Shown: positions 4,572 to 17,268 of the stretch, piece after piece
Numbering within the stretch: the stretch's first letter is position 1
Layout: the number at the start of each line of letters is the position of its first letter
Assembly (NCBI GenBank): GCA_021790275.1
Contig: JAJYIB010000001.1
Coordinates: 1 to 51,344 of the forward strand
Length of the DNA: 51,344 bases
Source of the DNA: a bacterium
GTDB lineage: Bacteria > Patescibacteriota > Minisyncoccia > UBA10092
Direction: 5' to 3'
Position numbers and translations under genes: made by a program
The notes under the pieces: model-generated
The model's database searches: none
What the model was told of the DNA's origin: nothing
What the model saw: the letters and a program-made list of their open reading frames with translations, nothing else

Positions 4572-5207
4572 ATGTATCCGAAACCGATACAAGATTTCAT
4601 AGACAATTTTGCGAAACTTCCGGGAATCGGGCCGCGCCAGGCGGCGCGGCTGGCTTTTTGGCTTTTGAACGACAAGAAAAATACCCGAGAAAATTTAAAG
4701 CGCGCGCTCGAAGGATTGGACAAAGAAGTCAAAACCTGCAAATTTTGCCATTTTGCCATCGAAAACCTGCCTGCCGGCAGGCAGGCGCCGGAAAGCAAAT
4801 GCCCGTTTTGCGATAATCCCGCGCGCGACCGCAAAACGATTTGCGTCGTCGAAAAAGAAACCGATCTCGCCACAATCGAAAAATCCGGAGTGTACAAAGG
4901 ACTGTATCATGTTTTGGGCGGCCTTTTTTCCGCGCTCGATATCGCTATTCCCAAAAATCTCAAAATTCCCGAACTCGTCGAAAGAATTTCCGGCCGGACC
5001 GGCAAAGAAAAAATAGAAGAAGTGATTTTGGCGATTTCGCCGACGCACGAAGGCGACCTGACAGCGCGTTATCTGGAAAGATTGTTAAAGCCGCTCAAAA
5101 TAAAAACGACGCGCATCGGACGCGGTTTGCCGTACGGATCCGAAGTCGAATTCGCCGACGCCAAAACGCTATCGGGCGCGCTCGAATCGAGAAAAGAAAT
5201 AAAATAA
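4572..5207 (+). CDS. recR: recombination protein RecR
   Basis: HhH (LPGIGPRQAARLAF), a CxxC...CxxC zinc finger and a Toprim-like VVEKETD motif. Confidence 0.88.
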   Translation: MYPKPIQDFIDNFAKLPGIGPRQAARLAFWLLNDKKNTRENLKRALEGLDKEVKTCKFCHFAIENLPAGRQAPESKCPFCDNPARDRKTICVVEKETDLATIEKSGVYKGLYHVLGGLFSALDIAIPKNLKIPELVERISGRTGKEKIEEVILAISPTHEGDLTARYLERLLKPLKIKTTRIGRGLPYGSEVEFADAKTLSGALESRKEIK

Positions 5208-5224
5208 CCCTCGCGATACGGAGG

Positions 5225-5533
5225 TTATTTTATCGACGATATTTCGATTTCCGTAAAATGCTGGCGATGGCCGGCTTTTTTTCTGTATCGGGTTTTCGAG
5301 TGATAATGGAAAACGACGATTTTTTTCGATCGCCCCTGTTTTAAAACCTTGCCCAAAACTTTCGCGCCTTCAACCGAAGGCATACCGATTTTTACATCCT
5401 TGCCGGCTATGAGCAAAACTTCGCCGAATTCGACATTGTCGCCTTCGGCCGTATCGATTTTGCCGATCTTAAGCTTGTCGCCTTCTTTGACGATATATTG
5501 TTTGCCGCCCGTTTTTATAACCGCGAATTTCAT
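5225..5533 (-). CDS. rplU: 50S ribosomal protein L21
   Basis: MKFAVIKTGGKQYIVKEGDKL is the typical L21 N-terminus. The start was moved from the ORF-track 5608 to the internal ATG at 5533. Confidence 0.88.
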   Translation of the reverse strand: MKFAVIKTGGKQYIVKEGDKLKIGKIDTAEGDNVEFGEVLLIAGKDVKIGMPSVEGAKVLGKVLKQGRSKKIVVFHYHSKTRYRKKAGHRQHFTEIEISSIK

Positions 5534-5617
5534 AATAGTCGGAATATACAATAATTTCCGGCGTTTCGTCAAATAAAATCCCGCATGAATTTTAATGCGG
5601 GGGGACATTTTTAAGGT

Positions 5618-5899
5618 TCAACCTCCAAACGAAGTTCGAAAGCATCTACATTTTTCACAATAATACCCAATGCAACCGCAGGGTATCATTTTTTTTGTTC
5701 TACTGCTGCGATCAAATAATAATAGCAGTGGGAAAATGTCCTTTGCTCTATAAGCAATTACGCGGCGCATAAACTGGCCACAGTGCCAATGAAAAAAACT
5801 TCTTGAACCCAGCTTTTGTTTATAGTCGGGTTCTACTTGAAACACAAAATTATCAATTGTTACCATTAAAATCTCCTTTTTTAGCTTTATTTTTACCAT
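5618..5899 (-). CDS. small Cys/His-rich hypothetical protein
   Basis: AT-rich islet. Two in-frame ATGs (5899 and 5866) are each preceded by AAGGAG. HWHCG and CGCIGYYCEKCRC motifs suggest metal binding. Confidence 0.4.
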   Translation of the reverse strand: MVKIKLKKEILMVTIDNFVFQVEPDYKQKLGSRSFFHWHCGQFMRRVIAYRAKDIFPLLLLFDRSSRTKKMIPCGCIGYYCEKCRCFRTSFGG

Positions 5900-6042
5900 T
5901 TTTCTCCTTAAAAAGGAGATAAAATTTCTAAATTTAAAAGACCAAGTAACCCAAATTGGGTTTATCTTAACACATATAATTTTTTTTGCAAGCACTAAAT
6001 ACTGCTAATCTTACACAAGATATAGAGAGTAAAGTATATTTT

Positions 6043-6408
6043 TTACTTATTTATCAGATACAAAGCGATGCCGGCGATAAAAAGAAAAAACTGCGCCAAT
6101 ACGGAAGTAGAAGACAAAAAATAAGACAAAGCGCGGTCTTTTTTCCAAAATTCGGCGGCCAGTAAAAAATTCACCAGGAAAATAATCAAACCGACGGCCG
6201 GCAGAATAAAAACGCTGCGGACTTCGCCGAAATAATCCGCTCCCCCGCCGACATTGTAATGCAAAACGACCGGAATGCCGCTTTGCCTGACAAAAAATCT
6301 AAGAAACAAAAAAAGAGCGGCGACAAGAATCAAAGCCGAGGCCGATAATATCCTGTTCGTTTTGTTATTAAAAAATTCTTTCATAATTATAAAAGCGGCC
6401 GCGTTCAA
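6043..6408 (-). CDS. membrane protein, hypothetical
   Basis: 121 aa with 3-4 hydrophobic helices. Overlaps the upstream gene's stop by 4 nt. Confidence 0.5.
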   Translation of the reverse strand: MNAAAFIIMKEFFNNKTNRILSASALILVAALFLFLRFFVRQSGIPVVLHYNVGGGADYFGEVRSVFILPAVGLIIFLVNFLLAAEFWKKDRALSYFLSSTSVLAQFFLFIAGIALYLINK

Positions 6409-7250
6409 ATTTTAAAAATAACCGCCAGGGCGAATCCCAAAATCGAAAAAACGGCAAGCGGCGGCAAAGCCGGCATCGGTTTCCGCACTTTTTGGGAAAT
6501 AAAAATCAAATGCATAAACAAAAGCCCGACCAGCGAAAAACCGAAAACAAGCCATGCGGCGCCGACACTTACGGCGTATGCCGAAGCGGCCATAATAATC
6601 GGAAAAACAAAATCGCCGGTGCCGAGCATCATAAATCCTTCGCCCGGACGCGCTTCATTGAGCCGCGCGCCGAATCCGCGCCAATGTTCGGGAAAAATCA
6701 TCGCAAAAATCGCCCTGTCGGCGATCATTGCTTTCGCCATTTTTACCATATGTTTGGTTTTATAAACCGCGATGTAATCGTAAACCGCCATAAAAATCAA
6801 AATAACGACGGCCGCCCAGGGATTTATCGAAACGCCCAAAAACGCGGCGATGCCAGGCAAAGTCAGAATCAATATCAGATCGTGAAGCCAGACGTACGGC
6901 CAGATTATGTAAAAAATGATTAAAATCAAAGAAAAAATAAGCGGCAAATTGCCCGGCAAAAAAACGCCGAGTGTTATCAATACGCCCGAAAAAATCGCGA
7001 AAAGAAAAAACAGCCGCAAAAAAAATCCGCCGTGCGAAATACGGGTAAGCCCCAAAATAATCGCCGTGCCGATGCCGAAAGCAAACACAAACTGCCACCA
7101 AGGAAGCGCGGCCGGCGCGGTCGCGGAAGCGCCGGCGGCCCATCCCGATTGGCGAATCGCGCCGGCCGAAAAAACTCCGATAACGCCGACCAAACCGAAA
7201 GCCGCCAACTCCTGCAAAAACATTTTAAAATTCAAGCCGCGCGGAATCAT
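6405..7250 (-). CDS. presenilin/signal-peptide-peptidase-like intramembrane aspartyl protease (A22-type)
   Basis: Polytopic membrane protein with the ordered motifs YD (MAVYDYIAVY), GxGD (MLGTGDFVFP) and PAL (PMPALPPL). The start was set to an internal ATG to avoid overlap with 7252-7563. Confidence 0.65.
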   Translation of the reverse strand: MIPRGLNFKMFLQELAAFGLVGVIGVFSAGAIRQSGWAAGASATAPAALPWWQFVFAFGIGTAIILGLTRISHGGFFLRLFFLFAIFSGVLITLGVFLPGNLPLIFSLILIIFYIIWPYVWLHDLILILTLPGIAAFLGVSINPWAAVVILIFMAVYDYIAVYKTKHMVKMAKAMIADRAIFAMIFPEHWRGFGARLNEARPGEGFMMLGTGDFVFPIIMAASAYAVSVGAAWLVFGFSLVGLLFMHLIFISQKVRKPMPALPPLAVFSILGFALAVIFKI

Positions 7251-9055: not shown

Positions 9056-11215
9056 ATGGAACGGGAATCATTTAAACCAACCATTGAAACCGAGCCAAAA
9101 GAGCAGCTGGAAGCTGCTATGCGTTCGAATCCTGAAGGAAAGAAAACAGAAACAAAAGAACGATCCCGGCAGGAGGTAATGGAACTCAAAGATCGCCTCC
9201 ATTTTGTCGCTAAGCTCCTTTCTAAAAATTTTGACTTAAGGGTTATCGCCGGCAGCGGCTGGGCCGCCGGTCTTTCGGAAAAATTTCAAAGAGAACGCCA
9301 GAAACACCCCGATAAGAGCTTGGAAGAACTTGACCCGAAACTTCTTACGCCAGAAGTCATGATGTACCCGGAAAAAGATTTGCTGGAACGAAGCGAGGAT
9401 TTTATCTGGGGCGTATTTCGCCATGAGATGGGTCACATCAAGCATTCGGATTATCAATCACTCATGGAAGCGCAAGAGGGCGCAAAGCAGGAGGGATATA
9501 ATCCGATGGACCTTTTTGTAATCTACGACGCATGGGAAGACGGCCGCTCTAACAATATGGAGGGTCAGACTTCTAAAACAGCGCGACATCGTCTCGGCAC
9601 TTATCTCAAAGAAGATATTTCGGAGGCATTGCTTCTCGATTTTGAAAAAAAGCCGCTCCCCATCCAGTATGGCGCTTTATGCTGGGCAAAAGGAGCGGAA
9701 TCTTTTATTGAAGGGTTTGACTTCGAAGAACTCAAGACAAGAATAAAAGACGAAAAAGTTCTTAAGGCGTTTGAAAAAACCGAAGAGGCTTTAGATGAAT
9801 ACCTTGGCGAGCGAAAAGGACGCAAAGCGTTCACTGACGTTCTCTGGCAAAAAGGATGGCCGATATTCAAAGAGCTCATAGACAAACACATTCAGGATGA
9901 AGCAAAGAAAAACCACGAACGAAAACAAAAAGGAGAAGGCGCACCACAACAGCAGCAGGGACAGCAGGGAGAAAAGGGCGAAGGAAAATCAGAGGAAGGA
10001 CAAGAAGGACAACAATCGCAGGAAGGCAAAGGCCAAAAAGGCGAGCAGAAAAAAGAGGGAAAGCAAAAACAGCCCGGTCAGCAGCCCGGCGAAAGCAAAG
10101 CGTGGGACGAACTTTCACAAGAAGAAAAAGAGCAGTATATCAAAGAAGCTCGCGAAAAGCTGACTGAAGAGGAGCGGGAATTTGTTAAGCGCATCCAGCC
10201 AAAATCAATGCAAATGAAAGAGCGCGAGGATGGCACGATTGAAGTTACTATGAAGGGTGTTTCTCCCGAAGATATCAAGCAAGCCGAACAGGCAGAAAAA
10301 GAATTTGACGAACAAAAAAAGAAAACCGAGCAAGAAGCCGGGAAATACAAAGAGGCAGCGGTCAAAGAGGTTAAAGAATCATTGGAGAAGCTAAAGGAAC
10401 GGGAAACAGGACTTACTAAAGAAGAACGCGAAAAATACGAAGAGTACTTTTCAGAAGTGAGAAAATATGTCGGCGCGTTAGTAGAAAAATTGGATGAAGT
10501 TTTTCCACCTCAGGAAGAGTCGGAATGGGAGGGCGGCCAGCGCCGAGGCAAGAGGGTTGATACAAGAAAACTCGCACGCGAAGTTCCCACTGGGCACGGC
10601 CGCGTATTTGAAAAAAAGGAAGTGCCGGAAATAAAAGAAGCAGCCTTTACTTTGCTTGTTGATGTTTCTGGCAGCATGCAGGGCAATAAAATCGAAGAAG
10701 CCCTCAAAGCCGCCATGCTTATGGCTGAAGCGTTTTCCCGCAAAGGAGTTCCTTTTGAAATCCTCGCTTTCCATGAAAAACTTCTTGAACTCAAACAATT
10801 TGAAGATGAATACTTTGGAAAAAAGAAGCTGGAATTAATGAGGGTGCTTCAGGAAGTGCAGACATCGCACGCGCGATATAATGATGATGGATATGCAGTT
10901 GACGGCGCGGCAAGACGATTGCAAAAACGGCTTTTGGCCAATGATGCACAAGGCGCACTTATTATCTTTTCAGACGGCCGGCCGGAGCCGAGTTCGACAC
11001 ACAGCGGTTCGGAGTGGGAACTGCATGGAATCGTAAACAAATGGTCGAGACAAGTTCCATTAATCGGCGTCGGTATTGGCCCGGGTATGGAATCAACGAT
11101 AAAAGAGTATTATGGTAAAAACGGGCTGCCGGTGCCGGACATTACCAAGCTCCCCCACGCGCTGCTTGATATTTTGCGAAAGCAGATCGCGCGTTTTGAA
11201 AAAAGAAATCAATAA
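9056..11215 (+). CDS. vWA-domain protein with an N-terminal HExxH metallopeptidase-like domain (partner of the MoxR-type ATPase)
   Basis: FRHEMGHIKH motif, a Q/E/K/G-rich low-complexity linker, and a C-terminal vWA domain with MIDAS DVSGSM...NDDG...SDG. No signal peptide or TM segment. Confidence 0.75.
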   Translation: MERESFKPTIETEPKEQLEAAMRSNPEGKKTETKERSRQEVMELKDRLHFVAKLLSKNFDLRVIAGSGWAAGLSEKFQRERQKHPDKSLEELDPKLLTPEVMMYPEKDLLERSEDFIWGVFRHEMGHIKHSDYQSLMEAQEGAKQEGYNPMDLFVIYDAWEDGRSNNMEGQTSKTARHRLGTYLKEDISEALLLDFEKKPLPIQYGALCWAKGAESFIEGFDFEELKTRIKDEKVLKAFEKTEEALDEYLGERKGRKAFTDVLWQKGWPIFKELIDKHIQDEAKKNHERKQKGEGAPQQQQGQQGEKGEGKSEEGQEGQQSQEGKGQKGEQKKEGKQKQPGQQPGESKAWDELSQEEKEQYIKEAREKLTEEEREFVKRIQPKSMQMKEREDGTIEVTMKGVSPEDIKQAEQAEKEFDEQKKKTEQEAGKYKEAAVKEVKESLEKLKERETGLTKEEREKYEEYFSEVRKYVGALVEKLDEVFPPQEESEWEGGQRRGKRVDTRKLAREVPTGHGRVFEKKEVPEIKEAAFTLLVDVSGSMQGNKIEEALKAAMLMAEAFSRKGVPFEILAFHEKLLELKQFEDEYFGKKKLELMRVLQEVQTSHARYNDDGYAVDGAARRLQKRLLANDAQGALIIFSDGRPEPSSTHSGSEWELHGIVNKWSRQVPLIGVGIGPGMESTIKEYYGKNGLPVPDITKLPHALLDILRKQIARFEKRNQ

Positions 11216-11218
11216 CAT

Positions 11219-12115
11219 ATGAACCCAGAAAAACTACAACCTACTCCTGAATCAGCCGAAACTTCCCGCGAAGAAGCCACTGCTTTCGAAGCTTTTGGAA
11301 AGCGCGGACAAAGACCCGGGGACCAGGAGAAGAAAGAACCGCAAATTGAATCCGAGCAAGCTATCTCTCTTGCCCGCGAAGTGGAAGAGGCGTTTGCTCG
11401 GAACGATTTTAACGCGGCTTTAGATAAACTTCGCGAACTTCAACGCACGACATCTCCCGAAGGAGTCGTTGAGAGCGAGCACCACGAACAGCTACTTAAA
11501 GAATTCGAACGCCAAGTCGCCACACTTTCAAAACGAGAATACGCAAAGGCGGCCAAAATGAAGCCGGATGAATTTGCAAGGCTTTTCGGACCGCTTAAAG
11601 AACATATCCGCGAAATCGCCCAGCGCGCAAAAGAAACTAAAGAAAAAGAAGGGCATATTCCATTTATTATTGTTATCAAAAACGATGTCATCGGCGGCGA
11701 AAAAGCCATGCCACTCATAGAGCTTGAGGGCAAAAAGGGATATACAGACATGAGCGCGGACGCTATCAAAGGATGTAAACCATATGAAGTAAAGCTTCCC
11801 GAAGGCAAGGCATATCTTGCGATTGATATTGAAACAGGCAAAACCACTCTTGGCAAAACTCCAGATGAAGCAATCAAACAAATCAAAAAAGACAACCGCT
11901 CGGCACTCACTGTGGAAGAAGCGGTTGCTCTCATCACTCATCACCCTGAAATTCTTAAAGATCACTATGTTTGGGCTAGTGGCTCTCGCCACGGCGCCGA
12001 CAAGGTCGCGTATTTGTGGCTCTACGAGGGTGAGCCGAGGCTCCACTGGCTCAGCTCGGACTACTCGGATGCGGAGTGGGGCTCGGCCTCCTGCGGTAGT
12101 AGAGTTGGGCCTTGA
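11219..12115 (+). CDS. DGR variable (target) protein 1
   Basis: 298 aa. The last ~41 codons are VR1. It is a paralog of 13885-14781 and starts 3 nt after the vWA stop. Confidence 0.85.
   Translation: MNPEKLQPTPESAETSREEATAFEAFGKRGQRPGDQEKKEPQIESEQAISLAREVEEAFARNDFNAALDKLRELQRTTSPEGVVESEHHEQLLKEFERQVATLSKREYAKAAKMKPDEFARLFGPLKEHIREIAQRAKETKEKEGHIPFIIVIKNDVIGGEKAMPLIELEGKKGYTDMSADAIKGCKPYEVKLPEGKAYLAIDIETGKTTLGKTPDEAIKQIKKDNRSALTVEEAVALITHHPEILKDHYVWASGSRHGADKVAYLWLYEGEPRLHWLSSDYSDAEWGSASCGSRVGP
11979..12100 (+). repeat. DGR variable region VR1
   Basis: A 122-nt match to the reverse complement of the TR (16517-16638). There are 11 mismatches, all at TR adenines. Confidence 0.9.
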
Positions 12116-12177
12116 TGCTTGGATGCTTGTCCCTCTTGTTTCTTGATATTTGATTTCCGCGAAAATTTTTTTAGAGG
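12101..12177 (+). repeat. 77-nt VR-flanking block, copy 1 (candidate target-recognition/IMH-distal element)
   Basis: 100% identical to 14767-14843. Contains the target stop codon and a tandem GATGCTTG GATGCTTG. Confidence 0.8.
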
Positions 12178-12229
12178 ATCCGCAAATCAAGTTGATAAAA
12201 TAACAAAATTAAACTATAATTTAATCAAT

Positions 12230-13876
12230 ATGCGCGAAGGCTTTCCAACAATTGAACGATTTGAGGCATTCAAGCCAGAGGATGCCGAAAAACTCTCGGA
12301 GATTACCCGTATCCGAGAAGATCTTTTGAAATCCGAAGCTTTGCCAAAAGAGGCAAAGGATATTTTATCTGGCATCAAAGTCCAAGAAAAATCCAAAGAA
12401 GTTTTTGAAGCTCTGGAAACGCACGAGCAGGAAAAAGAAACTATCGGGGTAAGCGAGCAAGAAAAAGAAGTGCGTATCGGCCGGGAAACAACCCCAATTT
12501 TCGAAGGGCCGACAGAAAAGCTGACTTGGCAGCTTCAAGCCGAGCAATTCCGAGAACAAGGCCAGACAATGGTTGAGCTGGCTTTTAAGCGCAATGACGG
12601 CGTAGAGGTAAAGCCGGGCGGCGTTGCCAGAGGCAAGACAAGATTCGGCGAATATGAACGCTATCTCCCGCTGGAAGAATATAAAGCTCTCAAAAAAGAA
12701 AATTCAAAATATCTGGATGCGGTTGATAAAATAACAAGCGGCGATGAAAAAGAACGACAAGCCGCCGAAGAATATCTAACCAAATTCAAACAGGATCACC
12801 CCAAATCCGAGTGGGTGCTTCGCGCCATGCGCCATCTCAATTCCCTTGCGGTTCACGAATCCTGCGAAACGCTTGAGCGAGATCCATATTTCGTGGAAAC
12901 CCCGTATGTGGTTGAGACAATGGAAAAACTTACACGCCTTATCAATCGCCAGCGCGAGCGGCAACAGGGAATCGTAATCATTGAAGGTGATGCCGGTACT
13001 GGAAAAAATAAAATCGTTGACCACCTCGCCTATCTCACCAAACGGCCGGTATTTCGTTTTACTTGTTCAGCCGGCAAAGACGAACAGGATTTGAAGTATC
13101 TTTTGGAATATGATGCCAAAAAAGGCACTTACCGCATTAAGTCCACCGTCATTGAAGCTCTGGAAACCCCGGGCGCAGTTCTTGAATTTGACGAAATCAA
13201 CACCTTAAAACCCGAGGTTGCTAAAATACTGAACTCTCTTTTTGACCACGACCGCGCACTTTTCTTGGGCGAAGATCGGACATCGGTAAAAGCGGCCGAA
13301 GAAGTGGTTATGGTCGGACTTCAAAATCCCCAACACTATATGGGAGTCAAACCGCTTACCGAAACTATCAAATCCCGAGCCCGCATTATGGAAGTTGGCT
13401 ATCCGCCGTTTGAAAAAGAAAAAGCGAGTCCTAACGAGCAAACACAATATCGTTCCGACGAAGCACTTATCGTTCGCCAATATATCCCCGAACTCAAAGA
13501 TTTGGATCAAAGAGAGTTTCAAATTCTTTGGGATTCGGTTGTAAACAAGAAAGAAGATCCCCGGGCGCACGAACTCCTAACAAGCGCAAGAAAAGAGCGG
13601 ATCGAGGATGTGAAAGAAGTTGTGGAGATGGCAAATAAGATTCGTGAGGCTTATCGGGCTTACCACGAAGGCAAATCAGATGAGCCAATCAAATTCGTCT
13701 TTAGTTTGCGCGAATCTGTTGAGTGTGCTTTTGAGCTTCCTCATGTTGAATTGACCGCCGAGGAAAAAAGAAAGGGTATTACCCGCGCTAAAAAAGCGGT
13801 GCAGGAAGTTGTTTTGCCAAAGATTCCGCTTGGCGAAGAGCGCACCTATCTTCAAAGCCTTGTTGCCGAACTCTAA
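12230..13876 (+). CDS. AAA+ ATPase, MoxR/AAA_5-like
   Basis: Walker A (IIEGDAGTGKNK), Walker B (VLEFDEIN), sensor-like GLQNP and SRARI. The start was moved to the ATG at 12230 because 12119-12229 is the conserved VR flank. Confidence 0.8.
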   Translation: MREGFPTIERFEAFKPEDAEKLSEITRIREDLLKSEALPKEAKDILSGIKVQEKSKEVFEALETHEQEKETIGVSEQEKEVRIGRETTPIFEGPTEKLTWQLQAEQFREQGQTMVELAFKRNDGVEVKPGGVARGKTRFGEYERYLPLEEYKALKKENSKYLDAVDKITSGDEKERQAAEEYLTKFKQDHPKSEWVLRAMRHLNSLAVHESCETLERDPYFVETPYVVETMEKLTRLINRQRERQQGIVIIEGDAGTGKNKIVDHLAYLTKRPVFRFTCSAGKDEQDLKYLLEYDAKKGTYRIKSTVIEALETPGAVLEFDEINTLKPEVAKILNSLFDHDRALFLGEDRTSVKAAEEVVMVGLQNPQHYMGVKPLTETIKSRARIMEVGYPPFEKEKASPNEQTQYRSDEALIVRQYIPELKDLDQREFQILWDSVVNKKEDPRAHELLTSARKERIEDVKEVVEMANKIREAYRAYHEGKSDEPIKFVFSLRESVECAFELPHVELTAEEKRKGITRAKKAVQEVVLPKIPLGEERTYLQSLVAEL

Positions 13877-13884
13877 TTATTATT

Positions 13885-14781
13885 ATGAGCGTTGAAAAAC
13901 CACAATTTACTCCTCAAGAATCCGCAGAAGGAGAAGTCAAAACAGAATTTGAAGCGTTTTTTAAAGATAAAAGCAAAAAAGGACAAAAAGAAGAGCCGGA
14001 AGAAGTGAAAGAACGAAAAGCCGAGCTTGAACAAAAAGCCGTGACGCTCGCTCAAGAAGCCGAGCGGGCGTTTTCTTCAAACGACTTAACGCAAGCCCTC
14101 GAAAAACTCCGCGAATTGCAGCGCACCGTCGGAATGGAGATGGTTGAAAACCGCGAACAATATGAAAAATTCGAGCAGGAGTTTAATCGCCAAATAGATA
14201 ATCTCTCCAAGAAAGGATTTCCCAAGCTTGCCGGCATGGATGAGAAAAAATTCGCCGCGATATTCGAACCATTAAAGGAGAAACTTAAGGAACTTTCCTC
14301 GCGGGAGTTTCAAGAAGGCCGAATTCCATTCGTAGTCGTTCCGCGAGACAAACTTCTTGCTTTAGAAAAGCAAATGCCTCTTGTTGAACTTGAAGGTAAA
14401 AAGGGATCTACGGGCTTTGACGATGTATCCGGATACTTCACCACCGCCAAGGGCGTTGAAATCCCGGAAGCGATGGCATATCTCGTAGTAGACATCGAAA
14501 ACGGCAAAGTCATGCTCGGGAAAAGCGCAGATGAGGCGGTAAAACAATTCAAAAAAGAAGGACGTTCTCCGCTTACCGCCGATGAAGGCGTCGCACTAAT
14601 ACTCCAGCACCCGGAAATTCTTAAAGATCATTCGCTGGACTTGCCCGGCTCTCGCCGCGGCGCCGACAGGGTCGCGGGTTTGTGGCTCTACGGGGGTGAG
14701 CCGGGGCTCAGCTGGAGCAGCTCGGACTACTCGGATGCGAGGTGGGGCTCGGCCTCCTGCGGTAGTAGAGTTGGGCCTTGA
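13885..14781 (+). CDS. DGR variable (target) protein 2
   Basis: 298-aa paralog of 11219-12115 with VR2 at its C-terminus. Starts 8 nt after the ATPase stop. Confidence 0.85.
   Translation: MSVEKPQFTPQESAEGEVKTEFEAFFKDKSKKGQKEEPEEVKERKAELEQKAVTLAQEAERAFSSNDLTQALEKLRELQRTVGMEMVENREQYEKFEQEFNRQIDNLSKKGFPKLAGMDEKKFAAIFEPLKEKLKELSSREFQEGRIPFVVVPRDKLLALEKQMPLVELEGKKGSTGFDDVSGYFTTAKGVEIPEAMAYLVVDIENGKVMLGKSADEAVKQFKKEGRSPLTADEGVALILQHPEILKDHSLDLPGSRRGADRVAGLWLYGGEPGLSWSSSDYSDARWGSASCGSRVGP
14647..14766 (+). repeat. DGR variable region VR2
   Basis: A 120-nt match to the reverse complement of the TR. There are 15 mismatches, all at TR adenines (13 A->G, 2 A->T). Confidence 0.9.
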
Positions 14782-14843
14782 TGCTTGGATGCTTGTCCCT
14801 CTTGTTTCTTGATATTTGATTTCCGCGAAAATTTTTTTAGAGG
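14767..14843 (+). repeat. 77-nt VR-flanking block, copy 2
   Basis: Identical to 12101-12177. Confidence 0.8.
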
Positions 14844-14883: not shown

Positions 14884-14907
14884 GCATAAAAGGTGGTATA
14901 TTTAAAT

Positions 14908-15035
14908 TGCTGCCTACAATATCGAATACGCGCACGCGAGGTTATCTGCCTTCTTAAGGGCCCGATTGCGGCCTGAAAGGGGCAGCCGACCTCCACAATC
15001 GGTGCGCCTCGGTGCATTCGATATTGTGGGCAGCA
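14908..15035. other. 128-nt multi-stem element closed by a 20-bp inverted repeat (structured RNA or MITE-like)
   Basis: TGCTGCCTACAATATCGAAT (14908-14927) pairs with ATTCGATATTGTGGGCAGCA (15016-15035) with one transition. Nested stems CGATT/AATCG, CTGCC/GGCAG and GCAC(G)CGAGG/CCTCGGTGC. Abuts the RT stop codon. Confidence 0.45.
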
Positions 15036-15037
15036 GG

Positions 15038-16114
15038 CTACGGCTGTCCCTTTTTTGTTTGGTCTGAAGGTTCTTTCACCCACTGCCAAAACTGCTGATG
15101 AAGCTTCTCTCTTAATTTATGGCTGTCGGCATGGACAAGAAACCCCATGTAAGAATCAAACGATCTCAAAAGGGATTCCTCGCTGATCAACCCAGCCTTA
15201 AATTGTTTGACCTTATAGCGCAGTTTTCTGAAAATTCTTCTGCGAACTTTTGCGCGAGGAACGCGAGCGTACGGCAAAGAAACATAACCCAAATAATCGA
15301 TTCCTTGCCGCAACTTGCGAATTTCCACTTTATTGGGATGAAGGGACAGATCAAGATGTGTTCTCAAAAAATCTGAAATTTTGTCTTTCAGCGAAGCGAG
15401 ATATTGATCGTCATGATGGAGAATCACAAAATCATCCGTATATCGAAGGTAATATTTCACTTTGAGGTCATGCTTCACGAACTGATCCAATTCATTCATG
15501 TAAATATTGGCGAACATCTGCGAGGTAAGATTGCCGATGGGCGCTCCTTTAATGCCGAGTCTCTGGTCGGCATCGGACGCGAAACTTCCAATGATTACTC
15601 CGACCAAATCCAAAACATCCTGATCTTTAATTTTGCGACCGATGATCTCCAGAAGGATTTGATGGTCAATGGTCGGAAAAAATTGCCGAATGTCGCACTT
15701 GAGCGCAAAGCATCCGCCTTTCGTTTGAAAAACTTTTCGTGCGTAAACGCCGAGCTGCTTCACCCCCTTATGGGTTCCCTTTTCTTTCCTGCAAGAATAA
15801 GAATCGGGAATAAAGGTCGACTCAAAAATGGGGTTAATAACGCGGAAAACCGCGTGATGGACGATTCTGTCGCGGACGGTGGCTTTGTGAATATGCCTCA
15901 ACTTCGGATCGCGGACATAAAAATCGACATACTCGCCATGCCGATATCTTTTATGGATCAGGCCGCGGTGAAGTTTAAAGAGGTTATCTCCCAAATGCCG
16001 CTCAAAAAGCTGGACATCGGCTTTTTTCCGCTTTTCTCTTTTGAAATCGTCCCACGCTTCGAGGAGATTCTCTGTTGAGACGATTTGCTCGAATAGTTTT
16101 CTGTAAACTTTCAT
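15038..16114 (-). CDS. DGR reverse transcriptase
   Basis: YTDD catalytic box (YLRYTDDFVIL) and the DGR-type IGNLTSQ motif in place of the group II/retron SP motif. 358 aa. Confidence 0.9.
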   Translation of the reverse strand: MKVYRKLFEQIVSTENLLEAWDDFKREKRKKADVQLFERHLGDNLFKLHRGLIHKRYRHGEYVDFYVRDPKLRHIHKATVRDRIVHHAVFRVINPIFESTFIPDSYSCRKEKGTHKGVKQLGVYARKVFQTKGGCFALKCDIRQFFPTIDHQILLEIIGRKIKDQDVLDLVGVIIGSFASDADQRLGIKGAPIGNLTSQMFANIYMNELDQFVKHDLKVKYYLRYTDDFVILHHDDQYLASLKDKISDFLRTHLDLSLHPNKVEIRKLRQGIDYLGYVSLPYARVPRAKVRRRIFRKLRYKVKQFKAGLISEESLLRSFDSYMGFLVHADSHKLREKLHQQFWQWVKEPSDQTKKGQP

Positions 16115-16474
16115 ATGAGAAATTTAGATCAATTAAACAACGATGCTCCGATTCTTAAACATACCATCGATCTCTACAAGGAACTCTACGGATATCTGAA
16201 AACATTTCCGAAAAAAGATCAGTATCTGCTCGGAAAGCAAATCGAAGAGCATGTGCTGGTTTTCTTGGAGCTGATCCTGATGGCCGCCGGAATGCAAAGG
16301 TTGCAAAAGTTGGAAGTCCTTGAGCAAGCCAACGGAAAATACGAGGTCTTCAAGGTGCTGCTGTATGTGGCTCGCGAGATGAAGATGATCAACAACGAAA
16401 AGTATCTTTCGGCGGAAGCAAAGGCACAAGAAATCGGAATGCAGCTTGGCGGATGGATACGCTCTTTGAGATAG
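16115..16474 (+). CDS. avd: Avd-like accessory variability determinant (four-helix-bundle, 23S rRNA IVS-protein family)
   Basis: 119 aa with an Avd-like pattern (..YGYLKTFPKKDQYLLGKQIEEH...EIGMQLGGWIRSL). Sits directly beside the RT. Confidence 0.75.
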   Translation: MRNLDQLNNDAPILKHTIDLYKELYGYLKTFPKKDQYLLGKQIEEHVLVFLELILMAAGMQRLQKLEVLEQANGKYEVFKVLLYVAREMKMINNEKYLSAEAKAQEIGMQLGGWIRSLR

Positions 16475-16475
16475 C

Positions 16476-16503
16476 GAAAGGCGTCCTTTCGAGGACGCCT
16501 TTC
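16476..16503. terminator. perfect hairpin between the avd stop and the TR (candidate bidirectional terminator or DGR RNA element)
   Basis: GAAAGGCGTCC(T)-TTCG-(A)GGACGCCTTTC, a 12-bp stem with a UUCG loop on plus (CGAA on minus). T-rich sequence follows on plus, and TTTCGC follows on minus. Confidence 0.6.
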
Positions 16504-16516
16504 TATGATTTAAACG

Positions 16517-16638
16517 ACTACCGCAGGAGGCCGAGCCCCACTTCGCATTCGAGTTGTCCGAGTTGTTCCAGTTGAGCTTCGGCTTACCCTCGTTGAGCCA
16601 CAAATTCGCGACCTTGTCGGCGCCGTGGCGAGAGCCAC
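16517..16638 (-). repeat. DGR template region (TR)
   Basis: The minus strand matches VR1 and VR2. It contains 27 adenines, mostly in AAC/AAT/AAG codons (..NLWLNEGKPKLNWNNSDNSNAKWGSASCGSR). It is not part of a long ORF: a TAA lies 3 codons upstream. Confidence 0.9.
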
Positions 16639-17073
16639 ACCGGCATTACTGCTTCCCAACCGAGCCACCGAAGATCGAGCTTTACTTCCCGCTGGAAGCG
16701 GACCTATAAGCTTTCACTCCTGAATTTAATACGGCGGCAGGCCGAGCTTTTGGCTCTTGCCACCCGCGCTAGGAAACAGTAAGTAGTAGCTAAAATCTCA
16801 CTGCACGCTCATGACGACCGTAATCGCCATGATTCTGGCAAGTTTGCTGAGAGTTCAGGATTTCGGCGACCGCGGACCGTAATCCGCGATGCAGTAGCCT
16901 ACTTTCATACGTAAAATAGCACTCCAAGATTATTTTTACAATTATAAAATAAATAAACAAAATGGCAGTAAAGTTCAACTGCTGGTTTTTATTCAACTCA
17001 TTATCAGCGCAAGCCACTCGGATCACAGCTCACTCGCTATCACTCGGGTCATATCGATAATAAATTTTCTTGA
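16639..17073 (-). promoter_or_regulatory. 435-nt non-coding leader between tRNA-Glu and the TR, with twin hairpins
   Basis: No credible ORF. On the minus strand, CGCGGA-UUACGG-UCCGCG (about 16868-16885) and AUGGCGA-UUACGG-UCGUCAU (about 16811-16830) share the same loop. An AT-rich promoter-like stretch with TATAAT lies around 16940-16990. Confidence 0.4.
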
Positions 17074-17146
17074 CAGCCCCGACGGGATTCGAACCCGTGT
17101 CGCTTGGATGAGAACCAAGTATCCTGAACCGCTAGACGACAGGGCC
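17074..17146 (-). tRNA. tRNA-Glu (anticodon CUC)
   Basis: Manual cloverleaf: GGCCCUG acceptor, anticodon loop UUCUCAU, T-loop UUCGAAU. No CCA is encoded. Confidence 0.88.
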
Positions 17147-17268
17147 GGATTAAATTTGCGGAATCTTCGCCCGCTCTCCCGTTCGCGCGGATTTGAATTT
17201 CGAATCCGCGATTTATTATAAACCAAACCGGTTGCTTCCGGCAACTTTTTGTGCCATAATTTCGCATA

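Follow-up and report, generated by a model that had tools for sequence, protein, structure and literature searches.

The window analyzed here is positions 1–51,344 of contig JAJYIB010000001.1 of assembly GCA_021790275.1, from a bacterium of the Patescibacteriota, here also called the candidate phyla radiation (CPR). It carries a diversity-generating retroelement (DGR) made up of a reverse transcriptase (RT) gene, the gene avd for an accessory protein, one template repeat (TR) and two variable repeats (VRs). As judged from the sequence, this is an ordinary and probably active DGR of a Patescibacteria (CPR) genome, with the TR-(avd)-RT layout that Wu et al. 2018 define as Architecture B3 (Nucleic Acids Res 46:11; PMC5758913). 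The gene order itself is already catalogued, and the RNA domain upstream of the TR is the new part: most likely a conserved structured domain of 268 nt supplies the functions that belong to the spacer (Sp) in the DGR of the Bordetella phage. Our explanation as a whole, a B3 DGR whose 5′ domain plays the role of the Bordetella Sp within a template RNA of ~435 nt, we hold with a probability of roughly 0.65. The features discussed below are collected in Table 1.

Scans with the RT yielded 29 related loci from a genome collection and 80 more from metagenomes. In most of these relatives a stretch of ~270–500 nt free of open reading frames (ORFs) lies ahead of the TR, and nucleotide conservation in its final ~270 nt persists even between loci whose RTs share only ~50% identity. 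The RNAalifold consensus of this segment, computed over 30 loci, has 60 base pairs, 49 of which show compensatory double changes; helix P3, which closes the domain next to the TR, consists of 12 pairs, and double changes occur at 9 of these. Over these 30 loci 95.7% of the cells are paired, vs 36–46% when the partners are slid by 1–3 columns, and there are 492 double-change cells against 62–84 for the slid partners; the observed pairing and double-change values were not reached in any of 500 shuffles. A covariance model of the domain has a single match in the 51-kb window, at 16641–16906 on the minus strand (214 bits), and outside the window it finds 35 matches in 34 loci (38–228 bits), none of which was in the training alignment. 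When these matches are aligned (all of them new but the window's own), pairing is 95% with 528 double-change cells.

With nhmmer the domain is found in 68 of 110 loci, always on the strand of the RT and TR, and in most loci it ends 512–551 nt ahead of the RT start. The B3 loci in which it is missing are almost all on contigs cut too near the RT. Locus L036 (2780–3145) has a B3 avd/RT pair, and there an ORF with a signal-peptide-like start replaces the domain before a TR-like sequence and a terminal hairpin; this may be a degenerate or rearranged element. In L014, a distant Saccharibacteria B3 element, the 330 nt upstream of the TR are free of ORFs and give no match to the model. Neither nhmmer nor the covariance model finds the domain in the canonical Firmicutes loci. 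A search of the window with Rfam 15, including families RT-1 to RT-19 (Weinberg et al. 2017), gives only tRNAs at the gathering score, and in the interval 16400–17100 no relevant Rfam match appears up to E = 10.

Table 1 Features of the DGR locus and its template-RNA region in the window
Feature	Position	Strand	Description
Extended −10 box TGcTATTTT	16913–16921	−	6 nt from its end to where conservation of the 5′ domain begins
Structured RNA domain	16639–16906	−	268 nt, directly 5′ of the TR
P1	16899–16865	−	helix of the 5′ domain
P2	16841–16801	−	helix of the 5′ domain
Primer-like strand	16798–16783	−	immediately before the P3 5′ strand
P3	16782–16771 with 16657–16646	−	3′ strand ends 7 nt before the TR
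P4	16767–16734	−	short stem-loop
A-rich single strand	16733–16721	−	consensus GAAUAAAAUUCAGG
P5	16720–16670	−	long stem with interior loops
TR	16517–16638	−	template repeat; last 25 nt (16541–16517) unchanged in both VRs
Linker	16504–16516	−	13 nt between TR and hairpin
Hairpin	16476–16503	.	GC-rich, 12-bp stem, 4-nt loop; between TR 3′ end and avd stop
avd gene	16115–16474	+	119 aa; accessory gene, opposite in strand to TR and RT
RT gene	15038–16114	−	358 aa, DGR reverse transcriptase, ATG adjoining the avd ATG
Long hairpin	14907–15036	.	directly after the RT stop, in the gap facing target 2; 31-nt arms, −71 kcal/mol
Target gene 1 (DUF5701)	11219–12115	+	VR1 at 11979–12100
Flank 3′ of VR1	12101–12177	+	77 nt; 94% identical copy after VR2 (14767–14843)
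Target gene 2 (DUF5701)	13885–14781	+	VR2 at 14647–14766

The two ends of the proposed template RNA are marked by conserved features. At the upstream end, 50 of 54 unique loci have a TAnnnT hexamer that stops 3–7 nt short of the domain's first conserved position (TATAAT in 12, TATACT in 9 and TAAAAT in 9 of the 54), TG is present at −15/−14 in 23 loci, and the putative −10 box often follows the terminator of the upstream gene. A consensus scan of the window also gives a second promoter candidate, TATAAT at 16946–16941 on the minus strand. A tRNA-Glu(CTC) gene (17072–17147, minus strand) lies ~150 nt upstream of the predicted template-RNA promoter, and the interval 16922–17071 between them is AT-rich. 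At the downstream end, 40 of 44 unique loci have a perfect hairpin stem of at least 8 bp between the TR and avd, with sequences that differ by locus. The stems are 8–17 bp long (median 13) and terminator-like, without bulged bases; the hairpin begins a median of 13.5 nt after the end of TR/VR homology and in most loci 0–6 nt separate its end from the avd stop. Behind the GC core the two strands are about equally rich in T (4.4 and 3.75 of 9 nt), and the hairpin looks like a moderately strong, two-way terminator common to the TR and avd; by analogy with the Bordetella RNA, it may double as an Avd-binding stem-loop. The preliminary description of this locus had offered, as a fallback, a separate TR transcript bounded by the 16476–16503 hairpin, and the frequencies of the −10 box and of the hairpin make this the better fit.

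The primer-like strand of the 5′ domain is complementary to the last 6 nt of the TR plus the 13-nt linker (16522–16506). With RNAduplex, the mean pairing energy is −12.9 kcal/mol for cognate strands vs −9.65 kcal/mol across clades, and none of 2000 permutations reaches the cognate mean. In an anchored register, which is a noisier test, 65% of positions are paired, vs 45–60% when the register is shifted. The pairing is clade-specific: GAUUUUAG faces UAAAAUC in the window's clade, GAGGAGA faces UCUCUCC in another, and GAUAGAGA faces UCUCUAUC in a third. We regard it as supported by these comparisons, not proven. With the 5′ domain at full length against the TR end, RNAduplex returned pairings with long loops that could not be interpreted, and the short windows of the tests above were used instead.

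The RNA of the Bordetella phage BPP-1 DGR consists of the 3′ end of avd, the TR and the 140-nt spacer Sp (Handa et al. 2018, PMC6182149; bioRxiv 10.1101/2023.10.23.563531). It begins with an upstream strand (the last avd codons), followed by the TR and an Avd-binding stem-loop, Sp3–33; the primer strand is Sp50–56, with priming at A56, and the 'cPRT Stop' strand, Sp59–70, pairs with the upstream strand. After the Stop strand come a short stem-loop, unpaired adenosines with a single-stranded 'Thumb Ring', and a long RT-binding stem with interior loops (bioRxiv 10.1101/2023.10.23.563531). The survey of other DGRs in that preprint was confined to 40 nt upstream of the TR and 100 nt downstream of it, so it would have missed the 5′ domain.

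By analogy with this RNA, we propose that the promoter at ~16921–16913 on the minus strand starts a template RNA of ~435 nt at ~16906, whose first 268 nt would fold into the conserved multi-helix domain revealed by covariation and would take the part of the Bordetella Sp. P3 would tie a distal strand to the one ending 7 nt upstream of the TR, like the 'cPRT Stop' duplex; the strand complementary to the TR 3′ end and linker would directly precede that distal strand in the manner of a primer; and P4, the A-rich strand and P5 would come next, so that the Sp module order stands before the TR instead of after it. Judged from topology, this order is that of an Sp shifted across the TR from its 3′ to its 5′ side. 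The GC hairpin 13 nt after the TR would stop the avd transcript, would stop or attenuate the template RNA, and might bind Avd. RT and avd would have promoters inside each other's coding sequence, or RT would be made by read-through of the template RNA, and RT-Avd would copy the TR with adenine errors into the two plus-strand VRs, as in established DGR biology. For the CPR B3 DGRs at large we see an even balance for and against a rearranged template RNA of this kind, in which the whole spacer function would lie 5′ of the TR, cDNA would be primed from the 5′ domain in a retron-like way, and the TR would end at a hairpin common with the convergent avd.

Several points weigh against this explanation. 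Where the template RNA starts and where its 3′ end lies, and how efficiently the hairpin terminates, are predictions. In the window the T-tract of the hairpin is weak on the TR strand and a consensus scan calls a terminator on the avd strand only, so read-through toward RT is possible. Helices P1 and P2 have no assigned Sp counterpart. A sub-model, R2, comprising the P3 5′ strand, P4, the A-rich strand and P5, has no hits among the canonical Firmicutes DGR loci (it matches weakly in the distant B3 locus L015), and because no homology is detectable with it the equivalence of the 5′ domain and Sp rests on order and topology. The primer-like pairing comes partly from invariant ACU/AGU bases, and the fixed register pairs only the 65% of positions given above. 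Searches anchored on each ATG find no conserved, position-specific −10 box upstream of RT or avd. Finally, the literature and RNA libraries that we searched hold no description of a structured RNA upstream of the TR, but Paul et al. 2017 and the final version of Handa et al. 2025 were not among them and may contain one.

How RT and avd are expressed depends on their shared junction. The RT ORF matches Pfam RVT_1 (8e-20) and contains the DGR-type motif PIGNLTSQ; its best NCBIfam match is a related group II intron RT, below the cutoff of that model, and the RT relatives retrieved are all RTs adjoining TR/VR pairs. The avd product scores 54.8 bits with Pfam bAvd (cutoff 40 bits) and 66.9 bits with NCBIfam DivGenRetAVD (E = 1.6e-18), below that model's 80-bit cutoff. 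The preliminary description had RT (15038–16114, minus strand), avd (16115–16474, plus strand), the TR, the hairpin and the VRs all correctly placed and oriented, and its abutting start codons are confirmed: the CAT at 16112–16114 is immediately next to the ATG at 16115–16117, leaving 0 nt between the two starts. A start further downstream, which it had raised as a possible correction, finds no candidate, as neither gene has an alternative ATG, GTG or TTG within ~40 codons, and the N-termini are conserved; there is no in-frame start upstream for either gene. Met1 of RT is unchanged in 9 relatives, and all 30 aligned avd genes end on CAT at the identical place. The ORF list also includes a 156-aa minus-strand ORF (16133–16603) that runs across the 3′ part of the TR and antisense avd; its overlap with the TR and with an avd gene that Pfam supports makes it most likely a spurious ORF, a caution for annotators.

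With 0 nt between the start codons here, and a distance of −2 to +6 nt in 56 of the 71 related loci that have a divergent avd/RT pair, no intergenic promoter fits, as had been pointed out; either the promoters overlap coding sequence or RT is read from the template-RNA transcript. One version of the former, fully compatible with our explanation, is that RT and avd are leaderless or nearly so and have interleaved back-to-back promoters, with TAAACT (16104–16109, plus strand) and TAAATT (16126–16121, minus strand) as −10 elements within the other gene's first codons. Both hexamers are indeed located where the preliminary description put them, at a spacing of 5–6 nt, and the closeness of the starts in the relatives also speaks for this reading. 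Initiation without a leader signal is also plausible, since a Shine-Dalgarno-like motif (GGAG, GAGG or AGGA at −16 to −6) precedes only 4 of the 48 long ORFs in the window. Upstream regions are A/T-rich, and the genome seems to initiate translation largely without Shine-Dalgarno pairing; the missing motif at RT and avd is therefore uninformative, and we rejected its absence as an argument for leaderless mRNAs. Against interleaved promoters, 26 of 61 loci have TAnnnT at −16 to −10 relative to the avd start and 11 of 61 relative to the RT start, without positional enrichment upstream of either ATG; the hexamers could be by-products of AT-rich conserved codons (Met-Lys-Ile-Tyr-Lys in RT), and RT could instead be translated from template-RNA read-through. 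Leaderless expression is a tentative proposal, and we would sooner bet against it than for it.

Another reading is that the 5′ domain, although a real structured RNA, is a cis-regulatory leader (riboswitch-like or an attenuator bound by a protein) governing TR and RT transcription, or a stability element. Like many leaders it lies between a promoter and a downstream hairpin, and the lack of detectable sequence homology to canonical Sp modules and the two helices without an Sp counterpart point the same way. However, P3 links the domain to a strand only 7 nt from the TR, the strand beside P3 is complementary to the TR 3′ end and linker, and the order of the modules copies that of Sp. DGRs moreover need an RNA that binds RT-Avd and primes, and none was found elsewhere at the locus, antisense avd having 0 conserved pairs; nor is there a riboswitch match in Rfam. 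We consider a purely regulatory or stabilizing role unlikely.

The preliminary description had concluded that any equivalent of the Bordetella spacer must be encoded antisense to avd, such that TR, antisense avd and RT form one functional RNA and a single sequence is under dual constraint. Between TR and RT the minus strand does indeed hold a hairpin and then the reverse complement of avd; the end of the TR and the RT start are kept ~390–420 nt apart in most of 47 loci, and the modest T-tract of the hairpin on the TR strand would permit read-through. The constancy of that distance is explained by the length of avd, however, and in the same 30 loci that give 60 covarying pairs 5′ of the TR, RNAalifold finds 0 conserved base pairs in antisense avd, whose conservation shows codon periodicity. 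A far better scaffold candidate sits 5′ of the TR, and a spacer within antisense avd that carries the priming and RT-binding elements is very improbable.

On the minus strand the order is TR (16638–16517), antisense avd (16474–16115) and RT (16114–15038), which is the B3 core with avd reversed, and B3 is reported for 90% of CPR DGRs by Wu et al. 2018 (PMC5758913). Patescibacteria/CPR relatives, with RTs 42–86% identical to that of the window, have avd on the strand opposite to RT, and where a TR could be mapped it is co-oriented with RT and upstream of avd; Firmicutes relatives, with RTs 36–39% identical, have the canonical avd(+)-TR-RT order. TR(+)-avd(−)-RT(+) is the order in 47 of 47 independent contigs with a mapped TR, and the 71 divergent avd/RT pairs are likewise on independent contigs from many samples, some up to ~400 kb. 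The idea that the inverted arrangement is an assembly or binning artefact, a possible refutation named at the outset, can be dismissed on the strength of these 47 and 71 contigs. Since B3 is already defined and the relatives have the same order, the layout is neither artefactual nor unusual for such organisms; comparison with catalogued architectures, suggested in the preliminary description, finds its match in B3, and the view of the geometry as unusual falls away.

Abutting starts are no peculiarity of this locus either, close spacing being the norm of the clade. Across the 71 divergent loci the distance is 0 nt in 17, −2 nt in 4, 1–6 nt in 35 and 8–15 nt in 8; the exact CAT/ATG junction is the commonest state in the clade, not a rule. 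The position of the VRs varies: among the 47 TR-mapped loci a VR is upstream and co-oriented in 33, and downstream of RT and inverted, as in the window, in 9. One Paceibacterota contig (L010) has two B3-type DGR cassettes, at 170–1190 and 4975–7066, each with its own TR, its own opposite-strand avd and a match to the 5′ domain (172 and 38 bits).

The predicted activity of the element agrees with its repeats. The TR has 11 mismatches with VR1 (11979–12100, plus strand) and 15 with VR2 (14647–14766, plus strand), and all 11 and all 15 fall at TR adenines; the two VRs differ from one another and from the TR, at adenine positions. Both VRs end 15 nt ahead of the stops of their DUF5701 ORFs, at the 3′ ends of the targets. 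The last 25 nt of the TR (16541–16517) contain one adenine only, at 16519, and by their sequence are a candidate IMH*-like segment (IMH, initiation of mutagenic homing). Over 49 TR/VR pairs, TR adenines at least 20 nt from the 3′ end of homology are substituted in 50–65% of cases, and those 5–19 nt from it are rare and substituted in 0–8%, a pattern that fits an initiation and homing segment as in known DGRs.

The 77-nt flank repeated after both VRs, to which nothing after the TR corresponds, is a candidate for target recognition. Its copy at VR1 overlaps the listed TTG start (12119) of an ORF for an AAA_5 ATPase, and because of this overlap that start is probably wrong. In the span 9056–14781 the DUF5701 targets alternate with a VWA-domain protein (9056–11215) and this AAA_5 (MoxR/dynein-like) ATPase (12119–13876), which suggests that the diversified proteins work with the VWA/AAA+ pair. 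The long hairpin after the RT stop has an internally paired 66-nt centre between its arms and is kept at the same place in three relatives (L030, L009 and L031); it is probably an RT terminator or another 3′ RNA element.

In nature, DGRs of the CPR B3 type rank among the most numerous. What is understood of DGR reverse transcription comes from a single phage element, whose RNA has its scaffold after the template. Should the upstream domain serve as scaffold in the B3 elements, the mechanism tolerates a spacer relocated to the template's other side; a second layout for DGR reverse transcription would then be solved, which would bear on how the RT-Avd complex threads its RNA. The minimal RNA needed to reconstitute a CPR DGR would then be ~435 nt long (16906 to ~16470, minus strand), a concrete RNA for in vitro reconstitution or engineering of these elements. 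The upstream domain also removes the apparent paradox of a spacer antisense to avd.

Compared with known systems, the window's locus is closest in its genes to the B3 elements of Wu et al. 2018 (PMC5758913). TR, avd and RT follow one another in the identical order and on the identical strands, nearly all hosts of B3 elements are CPR bacteria as here, and the position of the target gene is variable in both; the parts of that paper cited here do not mention abutting starts, a hairpin common to TR and avd, or a 5′ RNA domain. The retron msr-msd RNA resembles the window in topology only: a structured RT-binding and priming part lies 5′ of the template, and on the reading proposed here this 5′ part would in both cases pair with the region 3′ of the template and set the site of initiation. 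Unlike a retron, the window has an RT of the DGR clade, an Avd partner, TR/VR repeats and no msd-type stem, and the branched msDNA product is not part of the likeness.

The Bordetella element differs from that of the window in the place of its modules, all of which except the stem-loop after the TR sit 5′ rather than 3′ of the TR in the window, in the size of the structured RNA (a 140-nt Sp vs a 268-nt domain with the two extra helices P1 and P2), and in avd, which in the window is inverted and fills the TR-to-RT interval. In the canonical Firmicutes relatives a primer-like strand at Sp49–58 pairs with the TR end, and a Stop strand at about Sp58–76 pairs with the ~12 nt that immediately precede the TR, its differences from locus to locus being compensatory; these positions agree with the Bordetella map, and the same adjacency of the two strands is seen in the 5′ domain of the window. 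Bordetella and the window have in common an RT plus Avd and adenine-specific differences between TR and VR. In both, by the predicted fold in the case of the window, a duplex joins the strand just upstream of the TR to a distal one. A strand complementary to the TR's 3′ end stands directly before this distal strand, and after it come a stem-loop, an A-rich single-stranded segment and a long stem with interruptions; a further stem-loop, in the window a candidate for Avd binding, lies just downstream of the TR.

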